From an uncultured bacterium (GTDB taxonomy: Bacteria; Krumholzibacteriota; Krumholzibacteriia; Krumholzibacteriales; Krumholzibacteriaceae), in contig CAWJVO010000006.1 of the NCBI GenBank assembly GCA_963846325.1, forward strand, positions 34,514 through 98,513: a stretch of 64,000 nt of DNA, in the 5' to 3' direction. The translations under genes and the position numbers were made by a program. Shown here in pieces: positions 23,122-56,090 of this stretch (position 1 is the first letter of the stretch; every line of letters begins with the position of its first letter). The notes beneath the pieces were generated by a model. The model saw nothing but the letters and a program-made list of their open reading frames with translations, was not told the origin of the DNA and made no database searches.

Positions 23122-25593
23122 TTACTGGCTGTTTCTGCGGAGAAGGACGAGCGTCATGTCATCTTTCAAGCTGTTCTGGCCAAATGCGAGCAGTGTGGCA
23201 AATAACTTCTCGATGAGCGCGTTGATCGATTGTTGCGCGTTGCTCCTGAAGAATTCTATCAATCTCGGCTCTCCGAAAGGCTCCCCTTGCGGGCTTTCCT
23301 GGTCGATTATTCCGTCCGTATAGATGACGAGGAGGTCTCCGGCTCTCAGCCTGAGGACGCCTTCCATGTATTCGCTTTCCGACTCGACGCCGATGAGAAT
23401 GCCCCCTCTCTGCAGCCTGTTGATCCTGCCGTCCGGGGATATGACGAAGGGAGGATACGATCCCGCGTTCGAATACCGGATGATGCCGCTCGCGTCCTCG
23501 TACACCGCGTAGAAGAGCGTCGCGAATTTTTCCGCGTCGCTCCGCTCGTAGAGAGAGGCGTTGAGACTCGTGATGACCGCCGCGGGGCTGTCGGACTTCA
23601 TGCCGTCGATTCTCAGCGAAGCCTGTATCGTGGTCATGAGGAGCGCCGCCGGAATCCCCTTGCCCGATACGTCGGCCACGGCGATCCCGATCTTTCCCTC
23701 TCCGAGCTCGAGGAAATCGTAGAAATCCCCTCCGACCTCCCGGCTCGTTCGTATGCCTCCCAGGAGCCCCGCGAAGGCGAGCGGGGGAGGGGATGCGGGG
23801 AGAAGCCGCGCCTGGATATCGCTCGCGAGGTGAAGCTCCTCCTCGAGCTTTTCCTTTTCGATGGAATCTCTGCAGAGCTCGACGTTCATGAGAGCGACCG
23901 CGCTCCGCTCTCCGAGGAGCTCGAAGATCTCGCTGTCGGACCGGGTATACGGCTTGCCGGAGCTCTTGCGCCCGACGAGCAGGAATCCGAAAAGCTCGTC
24001 CTGCTCCATGAGAGGAACGGCCGCCGACGCGCGCGAGTTCGCGATGAGCTCCCGCGAGATCCCGTCGAAGTTGTTCTTGATCCAGAGCCTGTCGAAGCAC
24101 TCGAGCATTATCGGCAGACGCTCCTCGCGCATGAGCGTGATGAGATCGGTTCCGGGAGGAAACGAGGTGAGCGCCAGCCGTTTGTCCGGCGGGGCGCTCT
24201 CCCTCAGGGTGAAATTGCCGGATCCGTCCCTCAGGAAGAGGTACGCGTGCTCGGCGCGAAAGACGGAGAGTATCCGCGCCGTGACGAACGAGCCGATTTC
24301 CGCGACCGACCGGAGATACTGAATCTGCCTCGAGAACGCGATGACCTCGTCCTTGAAAGCCTTCCTGCTCTGGTAGAAAGCGCGATCGACGATTCTCTGG
24401 ATTCCGACGCGCGCCGGAACGATCGCGAGCGCCAGGAGAATGATCGCCGCGCCGGTGACGAACGTCGCCTGCGCGCCGAAAACGCGTTTCATCTCCTGTT
24501 CCAGCGCGGTGACGAACGCGTAATAGAGCGCGATGACGAACACGAGCAGCATCACGTAGGCGATGGATTTTCTCACGACGACGCCCAGATCGAGCGCGTC
24601 GTGCTTGAGGATCGCGTACGCGAACGATATCGGCATGAAGGAGAGGAAGAACGACCAGAGGTACCGGACCGGCACCGTCCCCGTCGGCAGCAATTGTTTG
24701 ATCAGCATAAGGACGGTGAGAGGCACGACCCCCAGCGCCACACCGATGATGACGATTCCGAATTTCTGCCGCTGCGCCCGTTCCGACACGAAATACGTCC
24801 GGATGAATACCGCGAGGCTCGCGACGACGTAGCAGAGCCAATAAACAATCGTGAGAGCGTTGAGGACGCCGATGAGGGCGCTCATGCGCCCGCCTCCCGA
24901 ATATCGCCAGAGCGCGAGAATGAAGGTCGAGAGCGAGAGGATTCCCGGCGGGATGTACAGAAAACCGACGAGCCGCCGCCTCCTCGTCCCGCGCTCGATC
25001 TCGCGCCCCGGAAAGAGGAGAAAAAAATGAAGAAAGAACGCAGGGAGAAAGATGAACAGGAAATCGTAAATGAGCTCTCCGACGATGTGAAGGAAGGGGA
25101 TGCCGGTGATCGGGCGCTCCGTGATGAGAAAGGCGAACATGAGGCAATTCGCCGAGAACAGGGCGCCGAGAATATCGGATCGCTTCGCGAAGACGGTGAG
25201 CCCCGCGAGGAGAAACGTGAAGCCGACGACGAGAAGCGAGAACTTTCCCGAGACGTGCCAGGCGGGCTGGGTCCCGCACAGCACCCCGACCCGGAACGTC
25301 GAATCTCCCCGCGCGACCGTGAAGTCGAGCGGAGAGGCGCCGCGGTTCGAGAAGACGAGGCTCGCATAATGATTCAGGTTCCTGGGGCTCACGCCGTTGA
25401 CGGCGATGATCCGATCGCCCGGCCGGAGCCCGAGATCCCTGTTCGGGCTCGTCTGCTCGATCGCGCGGATCGCGAAATTGTAATGGAGAATTCCGGTGTA
25501 GGGAGACCGGGTGAAGTCCCGGAACCCCAGCGAGCCGAGCAGGGCGATGATCACCGCGAGAACCACGATGGCGATCAACGAAACCCGGGTCAT
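23122..25593 (-). CDS. membrane sensor phosphatase: periplasmic PDZ, polytopic membrane region, GAF, PP2C/SpoIIE phosphatase
   Basis: PDZ-like GLRPGDRIIAVNG near the N-terminus, followed by about 9 hydrophobic helices and a GAF-like segment. C-terminal SpoIIE motifs SREVGGDFYDF, ADVSGKGIPAALLM, YTDGIIDQ. Confidence 0.85.
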   Translation of the reverse strand: MTRVSLIAIVVLAVIIALLGSLGFRDFTRSPYTGILHYNFAIRAIEQTSPNRDLGLRPGDRIIAVNGVSPRNLNHYASLVFSNRGASPLDFTVARGDSTFRVGVLCGTQPAWHVSGKFSLLVVGFTFLLAGLTVFAKRSDILGALFSANCLMFAFLITERPITGIPFLHIVGELIYDFLFIFLPAFFLHFFLLFPGREIERGTRRRRLVGFLYIPPGILSLSTFILALWRYSGGGRMSALIGVLNALTIVYWLCYVVASLAVFIRTYFVSERAQRQKFGIVIIGVALGVVPLTVLMLIKQLLPTGTVPVRYLWSFFLSFMPISFAYAILKHDALDLGVVVRKSIAYVMLLVFVIALYYAFVTALEQEMKRVFGAQATFVTGAAIILLALAIVPARVGIQRIVDRAFYQSRKAFKDEVIAFSRQIQYLRSVAEIGSFVTARILSVFRAEHAYLFLRDGSGNFTLRESAPPDKRLALTSFPPGTDLITLMREERLPIMLECFDRLWIKNNFDGISRELIANSRASAAVPLMEQDELFGFLLVGRKSSGKPYTRSDSEIFELLGERSAVALMNVELCRDSIEKEKLEEELHLASDIQARLLPASPPPLAFAGLLGGIRTSREVGGDFYDFLELGEGKIGIAVADVSGKGIPAALLMTTIQASLRIDGMKSDSPAAVITSLNASLYERSDAEKFATLFYAVYEDASGIIRYSNAGSYPPFVISPDGRINRLQRGGILIGVESESEYMEGVLRLRAGDLLVIYTDGIIDQESPQGEPFGEPRLIEFFRSNAQQSINALIEKLFATLLAFGQNSLKDDMTLVLLRRNSQ

Positions 25594-25742: not shown

Positions 25743-26411
25743 GTGGCAGCAGCACGAATTTCCAAGAAGCAATTGAAGGAAGATACCTTCATCGCGACGA
25801 CCCTGAAGGCGTGGGAGTATATACGCGAAAACGAAAAGAGATTCTTCATCGGGCTCATCGTGATCGTATGCGCCGTCGCTCTGGCCGGGTGGGCGGCATA
25901 TGCCAAGAGACAGAACAGGGAAAAGGCTTCCAGCCAGTTCGCCGACGCGCTCGCTTCGTTCCGGACCGGCGACCTCAAAACGGCCGATGAGCTTTTCGCG
26001 CTCGTCGCGAAGGAATACGGCGGCACGGAGGAGGGCGTCTACGCGAGCTTCTTCCAGGGGAAATGCAATCTCGAGAACGGAAAATATCTCGACGCGATCC
26101 AGGCGTTCGATCGTTACATCGCGAAGAGCGGAAGCCACCCGTTCTTTCGTGACGCCGCGGTCGAGGGGAGGGCGGTAGCGCTCCAGAACGAGCATCGATA
26201 CGTCGAAGCCGGCGACGCATACGCCGATCTCGCGAAAAACATCAAGACGAACCGCTTCATGGAGACCGTTTATCTCAAACGCGCGGCCGAGAACTACCGC
26301 CTCGGCGATCAGACGGAGAAGGCGATCGAGATCCTGTCGACGCTTCTCGGCAAAGCCACGGGCACGGAACGCCGGGATATCGAGATAGAGCTGGCGATCC
26401 TCCGCGGCTGA
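25743..26411 (+). CDS. membrane-anchored TPR-like protein (YfgM-like architecture)
   Basis: GTG at 25743 is preceded by GAAGGAGG. Single TM (FFIGLIVIVCAVALAGWAAYA) followed by TPR-like helices. The longer track ORF (from 25632) lacks an RBS. Confidence 0.65.
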   Translation: MAAARISKKQLKEDTFIATTLKAWEYIRENEKRFFIGLIVIVCAVALAGWAAYAKRQNREKASSQFADALASFRTGDLKTADELFALVAKEYGGTEEGVYASFFQGKCNLENGKYLDAIQAFDRYIAKSGSHPFFRDAAVEGRAVALQNEHRYVEAGDAYADLAKNIKTNRFMETVYLKRAAENYRLGDQTEKAIEILSTLLGKATGTERRDIEIELAILRG

Positions 26412-26875
26412 TGGGCCGCCGGCGCGGCGCTCCATCAGCAACCGGACGGCGTGTTTGCATGGAAGAGAATGCGGGATTGAATGCGATCGGAGGAACGGGG
26501 GAGAGCCCCGCGGCGAAGCCGTCGGGCGATTCCCGCTGGATCGCCGCAGTCGGGTACGTCGCGTTCGTATGCTTCTTCTCGCTCTGGTACGCGAAGAGGG
26601 ATCCGTTCGTCAAGGCTCATGCGTCTCAGGCGGTGCTTCTCTTCGTGGCCGAATGCGCGGCGCTCGCGGTCGCCGTTATCCTGGACTCTACGATCGGAAG
26701 AATCAGGATAGCCGGGCTCATCGTCGTCGGTCTCTTCGATCTCGTAGCGGCCCTCGCGGCTCTCGTTCTCTCGCTCGCGGGCTTTCTCAAGGCCCTCTTC
26801 GGGGAGGATTGGAGAATGCCCTTCTTCGGGCACTACCGCGAGAGGGTTCCCTTGCTTCATGGGCGGGAGGATTAA
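26411..26875 (+). CDS. DUF4870-like small membrane protein
   Basis: TGATG overlap with the upstream stop. Motif YAKRDPFVKAHASQAVLLF and 3 TM helices. An alternative start is at MEENAG (26459). Confidence 0.6.
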   Translation: MGRRRGAPSATGRRVCMEENAGLNAIGGTGESPAAKPSGDSRWIAAVGYVAFVCFFSLWYAKRDPFVKAHASQAVLLFVAECAALAVAVILDSTIGRIRIAGLIVVGLFDLVAALAALVLSLAGFLKALFGEDWRMPFFGHYRERVPLLHGRED

Positions 26876-26925
26876 TTTTATCTTGACAGCTTTTTGCGAT
26901 TGAACTTAGTGTTCGGCGGGGGGGT

Positions 26926-26941
26926 TGGTGAGGTTCTTGCA
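26926..26941 (+). promoter_or_regulatory. weak sigma54-type -24/-12 promoter candidate
   Basis: TGGTGA-GGTTC-TTGCA has correct GG-N10-GC spacing and a perfect TTGCA -12 box, about 55 nt upstream of the ATG at 26997. The -24 box matches TGGCAC at only 3/6. Confidence 0.3.
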
Positions 26942-26996
26942 CCACGGCATGGAAGAACGGGGAATAACAGGAAATGAACGGTAAGGAGGAGATGTT

Positions 26997-27566
26997 ATGA
27001 AGAAACTGGCAATGAGTGCTTTGTTCGTGCTGCTCCTGTTCGGATCGGCCGCCGCTCATGACGGCGCGCTGTCGCTTTACACCGACGCGACGATTACGGT
27101 TTGCTCCTCGGTGATCGCGTCGTTCGAGACCGACACCATCAACATGTACTACGTTCGGGGCACCGGGGCGAATCTCGGGAACGCCGTTGAGTTCAGGCTC
27201 GAGGCCTCGATCGCGGATGCGATATTTCTCGGCTTCGAGTGGAATTCCCAGATCACCGTCACCCTCGGCGACCCTCTGACCGGGATTTCGCTCACGGGCT
27301 CCAATTGTCTCGGCGGAGACGAACCGGTGGTCTACATCGGTTCCATATTTATCATGTACACGGGCTTCGCTTCTCCGCCCGACGACAGGTTCACCGTTAT
27401 GGTGAAGGAAGATCCGGCCGCTCAGCCTCCGGGCATCTACATAACCGAATGTCTTCCTTCGAATCCCATCAAAGCCGTTCTCGGTGGAACGTTCGTGTTC
27501 AACGGCAGCTGCTCGCCGTCGGTCAAGGAATCGACCTGGGGTTCCATCAAGGCTCTCTACAAATAG
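26997..27566 (+). CDS. secreted hypothetical protein (189 aa)
   Basis: Strong RBS (AAGGAGGAG). Cleavable signal peptide MKKLAMSALFVLLLFGSAAA/HD. Four Cys residues. C-terminus ...STWGSIKALYK. Followed by a strong terminator. I do not recognise the family. Confidence 0.7.
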   Translation: MKKLAMSALFVLLLFGSAAAHDGALSLYTDATITVCSSVIASFETDTINMYYVRGTGANLGNAVEFRLEASIADAIFLGFEWNSQITVTLGDPLTGISLTGSNCLGGDEPVVYIGSIFIMYTGFASPPDDRFTVMVKEDPAAQPPGIYITECLPSNPIKAVLGGTFVFNGSCSPSVKESTWGSIKALYK

Positions 27567-27593
27567 CCTGAGACCGGATACGGCTTCGCATCG

Positions 27594-27630
27594 ACCCGGG
27601 ATCGAGCAATCGATCCCGGGTTTTCTTTTT
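27594..27630 (+). terminator. rho-independent terminator
   Basis: Perfect 12-bp stem ACCCGGGATCGA / TCGATCCCGGGT with loop GCAA, followed by TTTCTTTTT. Confidence 0.8.
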
Positions 27631-27717
27631 CATGTGAAAGCGAGAAAGGCGGAAGGAGAATGGCGAAACGGAAGGATATGAAAACCGACAAGCGGAGGCT
27701 TTTCGAAGCGCCATTTA

Positions 27718-27745
27718 ATGGCGTATAATATATATTATGTTAACC
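27718..27745. other. dif: dif-like XerC/XerD chromosome dimer resolution site
   Basis: ATGGCGTATAA-TATATA-TTATGTTAACC matches E. coli dif (GGTGCGCATAA-TGTATA-TTATGTTAAAT) at 21/28 positions, including 9/11 of the XerD arm. Lies in a low-GC spacer between convergent genes, at the point where gene strand polarity flips. Confidence 0.6.
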
Positions 27746-27764
27746 AATAAGAGGGGTCAGCCTC

Positions 27765-30277
<2,513 letters not shown>

Positions 30278-30281
<4 letters not shown>

Positions 30282-55833: not shown

Positions 55834-55863
55834 GAAAATAATTCCCCACGCTGTGCCGTGTGG
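55834..55863 (-). terminator. candidate rho-independent terminator downstream of zapA
   Basis: Minus-strand CCACACG-gcacag-CGTGGGG (one mismatch) followed by AATTATTTTC. Confidence 0.45.
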
Positions 55864-56090
55864 TGAAGCCCCTTTAAAGCCGGAAACACAAGGTGGAAAT
55901 CCGCATGACCGTTTCTGCGATCCCGGTCGCGCCGGGCTTGGCATCGGCGGCCAGATATAGGATTTCCGGGCTAAAGGTGTTGGCTAAAAATTTACTTCTC
56001 CATCACGAGCACGGTAGGGAATTTCTCGTTCCGCGTGCGATGACCTTCTCCTCACGGTCCAGTGATTTCCGGCCAACACCCCAGGGCAAG
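55834..56090 (-). ncRNA. candidate structured RNA in the zapA-rny gap (6S RNA/ssrS-like position)
   Basis: About 250 nt non-coding between the zapA stop and a terminator. Long-range helix GCCGGAAA(T)CAC (56073-56062) / GTGTTTCCGGC (55889-55879) encloses about 195 nt. A competing perfect 9-bp helix is GGTGTTGGC / GCCAACACC. The zapA-ssrS synteny is known from E. coli. No covariance evidence is available. Confidence 0.25.

Follow-up and report, generated by a model that had tools for sequence, protein, structure and literature searches.

The 28-bp sequence ATGGCGTATAATATATATTATGTTAACC, found at positions 27718..27745 on the + strand of the window (the whole 64,000-nucleotide stretch of DNA that was analysed, G000:C6:34,514-98,513), is very probably the chromosomal dif site of this bacterium, lying in the replication terminus region and served by a canonical XerCD/FtsK mechanism. 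On the contig the site occupies C6:62,231-62,258, within an assembly (G000) of 16 contigs, 2.76 Mb and 63% GC that is ~80% complete. What is observed is the site itself, which is unique, deeply conserved and placed where GC skew, coding strand and polar words switch, together with genes for the three proteins expected to act on it; binding and recombination by XerCD are predicted, and the pairing of arms with proteins, the order of cleavage and the dependence on FtsK would follow by homology. To our knowledge, the Krumholzibacteriota are uncultured and known only from metagenome bins. They are not among the 16 phyla surveyed for dif by Kono et al. 2011 (PMC3025954), and our search found no literature mentioning both Krumholzibacteriota and XerD. 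The system is thus a canonical XerCD/dif system, newly placed in this phylum.

The 28-mer had been picked out by a sequence-only reading of the window, and re-reading the DNA recovered the same letters at 27718-27745 on the + strand. The sequence follows the 11-6-11 layout of dif sites: a left arm, ATGGCGTATAA (27728 being its last base, 27718..27728, +), which is the putative XerC-binding half-site by analogy only; a central region, TATATA (27729..27734, +), where strand exchange would take place and which is the same as the centre of B. subtilis dif; and a right arm, TTATGTTAACC (27735..27745, +), which by the same analogy is the putative XerD-binding half-site. Positions 8-12 pair with positions 17-21 and the centre is self-complementary. 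Kono et al. 2011 used a palindrome criterion of >4 pairs (PMC3025954), and the pairing in ATGGCGTATAATATATATTATGTTAACC is above this threshold. The identities that had been counted held up on recomputation: 21/28 with E. coli dif (7/11 in the XerC arm, 5/6 in the centre and 9/11 in the XerD arm) and 21/28 with B. subtilis dif (6/11, 6/6 and 9/11, the TATATA centre being identical). Both reference sequences agree with those that Kono et al. 2011 list in their supplementary table (PMC3025954). The dif predicted for B. weihenstephanensis in that survey, ACTTCGTATAATATATATTATGTTAACT, is identical to the 28-mer at 24/28 positions, and positions 5-27 (CGTATAATATATATTATGTTAAC) are common to both (PMC3025954).

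The 28-mer stands alone in the genome. No second copy of ATGGCGTATAATATATATTATGTTAACC occurs in the window at <=3 mismatches, and across the genome the 28-mer is the best match to both reference dif sites, with 21 identities against 19 for the next-best site. For a broader measure we used a log-odds matrix made from 35 distinct published dif predictions (Kono et al. 2011), mostly from Firmicutes together with Gemmatimonas, Thermodesulfovibrio, Syntrophus and Pseudomonas, none of them from Krumholzibacteriota. When 5.5 million positions of the 2.76-Mb assembly were scored with this matrix, the 28-mer reached 42.1 bits vs 16.2 for the runner-up; the training sites' own scores span 38.0-56.9, a range that includes the value obtained here. 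A second matrix, built from the sites of relatives and not independent of the site under study, gave 57.5 bits vs 10.1 for the next match. The single best match that had been predicted is therefore the only strong one in this ~80%-complete assembly, and the several equally good copies that had been named as grounds for abandoning the proposal are absent from it, the runners-up staying at 16.2 and 10.1 bits with the two matrices. The lead of 26 bits also bears on whether the sequence could be an AT-rich palindrome that arose by chance between two genes, with a TATAAT-like hexamer inside: spacers of GC-rich genomes do hold AT-rich palindromes and the 28-mer does include TATAAT, but 100 dinucleotide-preserving shuffles produced 0 matches, and a chance sequence is hard to reconcile with a 28-mer that is single-copy and conserved across the phylum when a reversed control gives one match. 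We regard a chance origin as having a negligible probability, and the conservation and uniqueness results refute it.

The position of the site agrees with a replication terminus. A GC-skew extremum had been predicted near it, and along the 313-kb contig C6 the cumulative skew reaches its maximum at C6:61,755, 476 bp from C6:62,231. The coding strand, which had been expected to switch at the site, flips in the same 5-kb interval as the skew maximum (over C6, the counts are +43/-2 left of the site and +23/-167 beyond it). A skew or strand switch elsewhere would have spoken for another location; the other turns are those of the dnaA origin on C16 and of an assembly artefact at the end of C6. The cumulative skew of the other contigs is monotonic, except on C16, where it has a minimum at 28,999, and the only dnaA gene of the assembly (C16:27,767-28,252) lies beside this minimum, which we therefore take as the replication origin. 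The distance between origin and dif runs across unordered contigs, the former being on C16 and the latter on C6. By homology, the replication forks would meet near dif, which marks the terminus region.

One further skew turn, at C6:301,040, was considered as an origin or terminus and rejected. The segment C6:301,916-312,708 is an inverted copy of C6:290,839-301,857 (86.7% identical, with many indels), and the hinge between the two carries two opposed UvrB C-terminal fragments. This 10.8-kb fold-back at the end of C6 is an assembly artefact and accounts for the spurious turn.

Short polar words of the KOPS type give a further view of the two replichores. The strand skew of octamers was learned from 14 contigs, all but C6 and C16, after orienting them by the sign of their skew. 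The most strand-skewed octamers have GGGGGAG in common, and one of them, GGGGAGGG, conforms to the E. coli KOPS consensus GGGNAGGG and is found on the leading strand of these training contigs 86% of the time (126:21). On the held-out contig C6, GGGNAGGG counts are +21/-2 left of dif and +10/-54 on its other side (Fisher p = 1.1e-10), and the orientation of GGGNAGGG and GGGGGAG switches within C6:61,010-63,966 (26,497-29,453 in the window), an interval that brackets dif. In the window, the last KOPS-type word on the + strand before dif is GGGGAGGG at 26165..26172 (the left side holds 10 such words on + and 1 on -), and the word scan places the first on the - strand after dif, GGGAAGGG, at 29453..29460. 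The polar-word bias of 86-91% exceeds the ~64% estimated for a word with seven Gs from a base skew of 3-5% alone; GC skew, coding-strand bias and G-rich words are nonetheless partly correlated, so that they are not three fully independent witnesses.

At the gene level, the site lies in a spacer of 198 bp (27567-27764) between two convergent genes. The last + gene before dif is a 189-aa ORF (26997..27566, +), taken from a GC3-based ORF call and matching no Pfam family; the first - gene after dif is leuS (27765..30281, -), recognised by its Pfam leucyl-tRNA synthetase domains, with 19 bp separating its stop codon from dif. Among named organisms, the nearest LeuS relatives belong to Candidatus Krumholzibacteriota / Krumholzibacteriia bins. 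An intrinsic terminator hairpin of the 189-aa ORF, distinct from dif, sits at 27593..27622 (+) and consists of a GC-rich 13-pair stem followed by a T run; it is 96 bp upstream of dif, so transcription coming from the left would end before the site. This confirms the earlier description of a spacer that runs from the terminator of the + gene to the leuS stop and holds the motif. A promoter scan found no promoter-like site in the spacer, and no Rfam family overlaps dif.

The polarity that had been claimed for the window, with every gene from 4 to 22398 on + and every gene from 27765 to 64000 on -, agrees with the GC3-based ORF call, with six tRNAs and with a 6S RNA; three ORF calls that break it are doubtful, having an atypical codon-position GC and the look of shadow frames. 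Between the two blocks, in the zone from 22.4 to 27.7 kb, the partition is imperfect: this zone contains one - gene (23122-25593), which encodes a PDZ-GAF-SpoIIE phosphatase, and three small + genes. The dif site itself is flanked directly by the last + gene and the first - gene. The 6S RNA is full-length (RF00013, 83.4 bits, window 55839-56023, -) and is co-oriented with the right replichore.

Conservation extends well beyond this genome. A degenerate 25-mer was found in 34/41 nearest relatives, almost always once, with one match for the reversed control. When sites were aligned with 25-nt flanks (n=21), the 28 columns carried 1.0-2.0 bits and 19 of them were invariant, while the flanks carried 0-0.8 bits save for one or two columns abutting the block on each side; these sharp edges, seen in 20 relatives, indicate that the conserved block coincides with the 28-bp dif unit to within one or two bases. 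Within the block, positions 18-26 of the right arm are invariant in 21/21 aligned sites, and in the left arm positions 1, 4, 6 and 7 vary. A XerC arm that is more variable than the XerD arm is the usual asymmetry of dif sites. Over the whole phylum, CRYATAATRTATATTATGTTAA was found at <=2 mismatches in 169/201 genomes, nearly always as a single copy (again with one match for the reversed control), and among bins at least 90% complete there was one copy in 112/125. In most other families of the phylum the core is CGCATAATGTATATTATGTTAA, which has a TGTATA centre and is the same as in E. coli. A TATATA centre is typical of the order to which this genome belongs and is rare outside it, and the T at position 7 predominates in its own genus and is present in other families too.

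The genes beside the site are conserved as well. In relatives of the same genus, family and order, and in one class-level relative, leuS adjoins the site; the distance from the leuS stop is 19-70 bp up to the order level and ~0.5 kb in the class-level genome (G036). In most relatives at the family level, homologues of the 189-aa ORF are found on the side of dif that it occupies here. This arrangement, with dif directly past the leuS stop and a homologue of the 189-aa ORF on the opposite side, is seen through genus-, family- and order-level relatives. The sequence-only reading had described the zone from 22.4 to 27.7 kb as terminus-proximal, in a kind of region where accessory genes often gather; the genes directly beside the site, leuS and the 189-aa ORF, are not such cargo, since relatives keep them in synteny with it, and the kept order of leuS, dif and 189-aa ORF points instead to an unusually stable terminus neighbourhood.

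Such tight linkage to the 3' end of leuS across the order, where the opposite flank usually carries a homologue of the 189-aa ORF, is also what one might see if the palindrome were a cis-element of either gene, an operator or a shared bidirectional terminator that is merely dif-like. We judge this very unlikely on several counts. The two genes converge, which leaves no promoter to regulate, and none was found; the + gene is already served by a GC-rich terminator of its own, 96 bp upstream of the palindrome, and the all-A/T stem of the palindrome would make a very weak hairpin. What is conserved is the sequence (19 invariant columns), without the compensatory changes of a paired stem. Moreover, the dif core is present without a nearby leuS in four relatives (G020, G038, G034 and G039) and across families of the phylum. 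An element of leuS or of the 189-aa ORF would also leave unexplained both the match to the dif sites of unrelated phyla and the convergence of polar words. A chromosomal dif accounts for both, and we retain this assignment.

The skew turn coincides with the site in 7/10 relatives tested. Relative to the site, the skew maximum falls at -10 bp, -21 bp and +434 bp in three members of the genus (G012, G015 and G011), at +51 bp in a member of the family (G024), at +2 bp and +4.2 kb in two members of the order (G026 and G027) and at -2.0 kb in a class-level relative (G036). In the order-level genome with the offset of +4.2 kb (G027, 97% complete and in two contigs), the skew of the stretches sampled reverses only at dnaA and at the site, and joining the contigs one way or the other gives a replichore ratio of 53:47 or 73:27. 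Two class-level relatives from one genus (G034 and G039) showed no skew turn on the right of the site, where the contigs extend for 27 and 18.6 kb. The distance from dif to the skew turn is 0-1.4% of genome length according to Kono et al. 2011 (PMC3025954), and 27 and 18.6 kb are still within this range.

Some of these genomes have features of their own. The sites of the two class-level relatives just mentioned (G034:C365:39,752 and G039:C28:125,035) have a core 24/25 identical to E. coli dif and lie away from leuS, and the GC skew stays positive over the 18-27 kb available beyond them. In a relative assembled as a single contig of 4.13 Mb (G023, C1), the skew sampled at 24 points was erratic, without a two-replichore pattern, and so is uninformative; its dnaA lies at 2.84 Mb, and its dif core maps to 4.09 Mb. 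Either this genome is heavily rearranged or its assembly is chimeric.

At the base-pair level, the skew turn lies 2-51 bp from dif in four relatives and within about 450 bp of it in this genome and one further relative, and dif has kept its place beside the leuS stop up to order-level divergence. It is conceivable, though in our view doubtful, that the terminus is physically pinned at dif in this lineage. The base-pair coincidence is largely a consequence of two convergent genes abutting the site, and we do not take it as proof of a fork stop. We know of no Tus/Ter or RTP system described for this lineage.

One family of the phylum (f5) departs from the common pattern. The canonical dif core was found in 0/7 of its genomes, two of which are 100% complete, and a search for YATAA-N6-TTATGT gave no match in four of them (G035, G040, G119 and G128). 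Both xer genes are present in all three genomes of the family that were searched for them (G035, G040 and G088). In G088, TTGGCGCATAAGACGGATTATGTAAACT, which has a GC-rich centre, is found at C70:120,042-120,058 (-), 52 kb from xerD and on the contig that carries the xerC/xerD pair.

Mobile elements that exploit Xer recombination integrate at dif and carry dif-like sites (PMC5357621), and this raises the question of whether the 28-mer is the attL/attR scar of such an element, or a terminal repeat of some other mobile element, with the zone from 22.4 to 27.7 kb as its cargo, rather than the resident dif. This zone does contain an opposite-strand gene and proteins of unknown function. Yet a pair of sites is not seen: the assembly has no second dif-like site, the next matches scoring 16.2 or 10.1 bits depending on the matrix. 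Among the left-side genes scanned there were no integrase, replication or phage genes, and in relatives the site keeps its synteny with the 189-aa ORF and leuS. The exact core had no match in 2.9 million viral contigs, which gives no evidence of phages copying the site, and the candidate second copies seen in relatives are uninformative. We therefore hold a mobile-element origin to be highly improbable, and keep to a resident chromosomal dif.

The candidate second copies are as follows. In two relatives (G037 and G054) the extra copy, being at the end of a contig, looks like an assembly duplicate, and in a third (G025) it occupies a short gap between two co-directional ORFs. A fourth, in G101 (C37:194-215), reads GATTCGTATAA-TATATA-TTATTATAATA; it retains the left arm and the centre, has a degenerate right arm, and is separated from the true dif by 9.2 kb. 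This copy was considered as the edge of an inserted element and rejected, the 9.2-kb interval matching the gene-size order upstream of leuS in the genome studied here; it seems to be an AT-rich spacer element.

The machinery that would act on the site is encoded in the assembly. XerC/XerD and FtsK had been expected elsewhere in the genome, and a XerC-like gene, a XerD-like gene and an FtsK gene with a gamma domain were all found. Exactly two tyrosine recombinase genes (PF00589) are present. The first encodes a XerD-like protein of 307 aa (C6:25,842-26,765), whose best match is TIGR02225 XerD with 322.8 bits for a cut-off of 329.6, and which passes the cut-off of NF001399, a tyrosine recombinase subfamily model; the second encodes a XerC-like protein of 311 aa (C6:13,181-14,116), whose best match is TIGR02224 XerC with 304.8 bits for a cut-off of 335.15. 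Both are just below the NCBIfam equivalog cut-offs, so the labels XerC and XerD stand for best matches only. Each protein has a SAM-like N-terminal domain and, as top solved relative, E. coli XerD (PDB 1A0P). The catalytic motifs (R, K, HxxR, H and Y) can be read in both sequences, in stretches such as GLRVSEL, GKGSKER, HTLRHS and LGHSS...IYT and their counterparts. The single FtsK, of 725 aa (C6:190,621-192,798), has the 4TM, alpha, motor and gamma parts (PF13491, PF17854, PF01580 and PF09397, the gamma domain scoring 92.1 bits).

Both recombinase genes are on the same side of dif, the XerD-like gene at 35.5 kb and the XerC-like gene at 48 kb, and the two xer genes likewise lie on one side of dif in a genus-level relative (G012; 35 and 46 kb) and an order-level relative (G027; 48 and 60 kb). 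This position, 35-48 kb from dif, differs from that in the survey of Kono et al. 2011, where xerD is mostly near the origin (PMC3025954).

Altogether, and judged from sequence, the architecture, similarity, uniqueness, skew position and machinery of the 28-mer all agree with the criteria by which dif sites are predicted computationally. By homology with the canonical XerCD/dif-FtsK mechanism (reviewed in PMC5357621), the site would work as follows. Once sister chromosomes have been joined into a dimer by homologous recombination, FtsK anchored at the septum would load on the GGGNAGGG/GGGGGAG words, which aim at dif on both replichores, and would pump DNA until the two copies of dif meet at the septum. 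There, the XerC-like protein would sit on the left 11-bp arm and the XerD-like protein on the invariant right arm. The FtsK gamma domain would then activate XerD, which would make the first exchange of strands where the arm borders the 6-bp TATATA centre, and the resulting Holliday junction would be resolved by XerC, yielding two monomers.

Among the systems that have been described, XerCD/dif of E. coli (dif GGTGCGCATAATGTATATTATGTTAAAT) has in common with the present one the 28-bp 11-6-11 layout and 21/28 identities, including the ATAA...TTATGTTAA core, as well as two paralogous recombinases, a gamma-domain FtsK, converging GGGNAGGG words and a site at the GC-skew turn. The differences are in the centre, which is TGTATA in E. 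coli and TATATA here, and in the outer positions of the arms (ATGGCGT... and ...AACC here). The CodV/RipX-dif system of B. subtilis has the same TATATA centre and also 21/28 identities. Unlike the Firmicutes, however, the present genome is from an FCB-group candidate phylum with about 63% GC; where B. subtilis has SpoIIIE plus SftA, a single membrane-anchored FtsK is found here, and the polar words resemble proteobacterial KOPS. The dif sites predicted for Chlorobi (for example TTGTTGTATAATATATATTATGTAAACT) and Gemmatimonadetes (for example AATGCGTATAATACATGTTATGTAAACT) in PMC3025954 have, by our count, 23/28 and 22/28 identities with the site described here; these sites are computational too, and were obtained by the same criteria as used here (palindrome, uniqueness and proximity to the skew turn). 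The XerS/difSL and XerH/difH systems do the same job, the resolution of dimers at the terminus by a tyrosine recombinase and an FtsK-type translocase, with one recombinase encoded beside an atypical, longer site. The system described here is unlike them in having two paralogues of XerC/XerD type, encoded 35 and 48 kb away, and a canonical 28-bp site.

That XerCD/dif, FtsK and KOPS-type polarity are once more conserved is what a specialist would expect, and in this respect the finding is ordinary biology. Its value for the Krumholzibacteriota lies in a dif consensus, ATGKCRYATAA-TRTATA-TTATGTTAACY, and in a firm terminus landmark. These can serve to order and orient contigs, to spot mis-assemblies (as skew exposed the 10.8-kb fold-back here), to estimate growth from the read depth at origin and terminus, and to search for mobile elements that hijack Xer. 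If forks truly meet or are processed at dif, this lineage would offer a natural test case for the contested proposal that replication terminates at or near dif.
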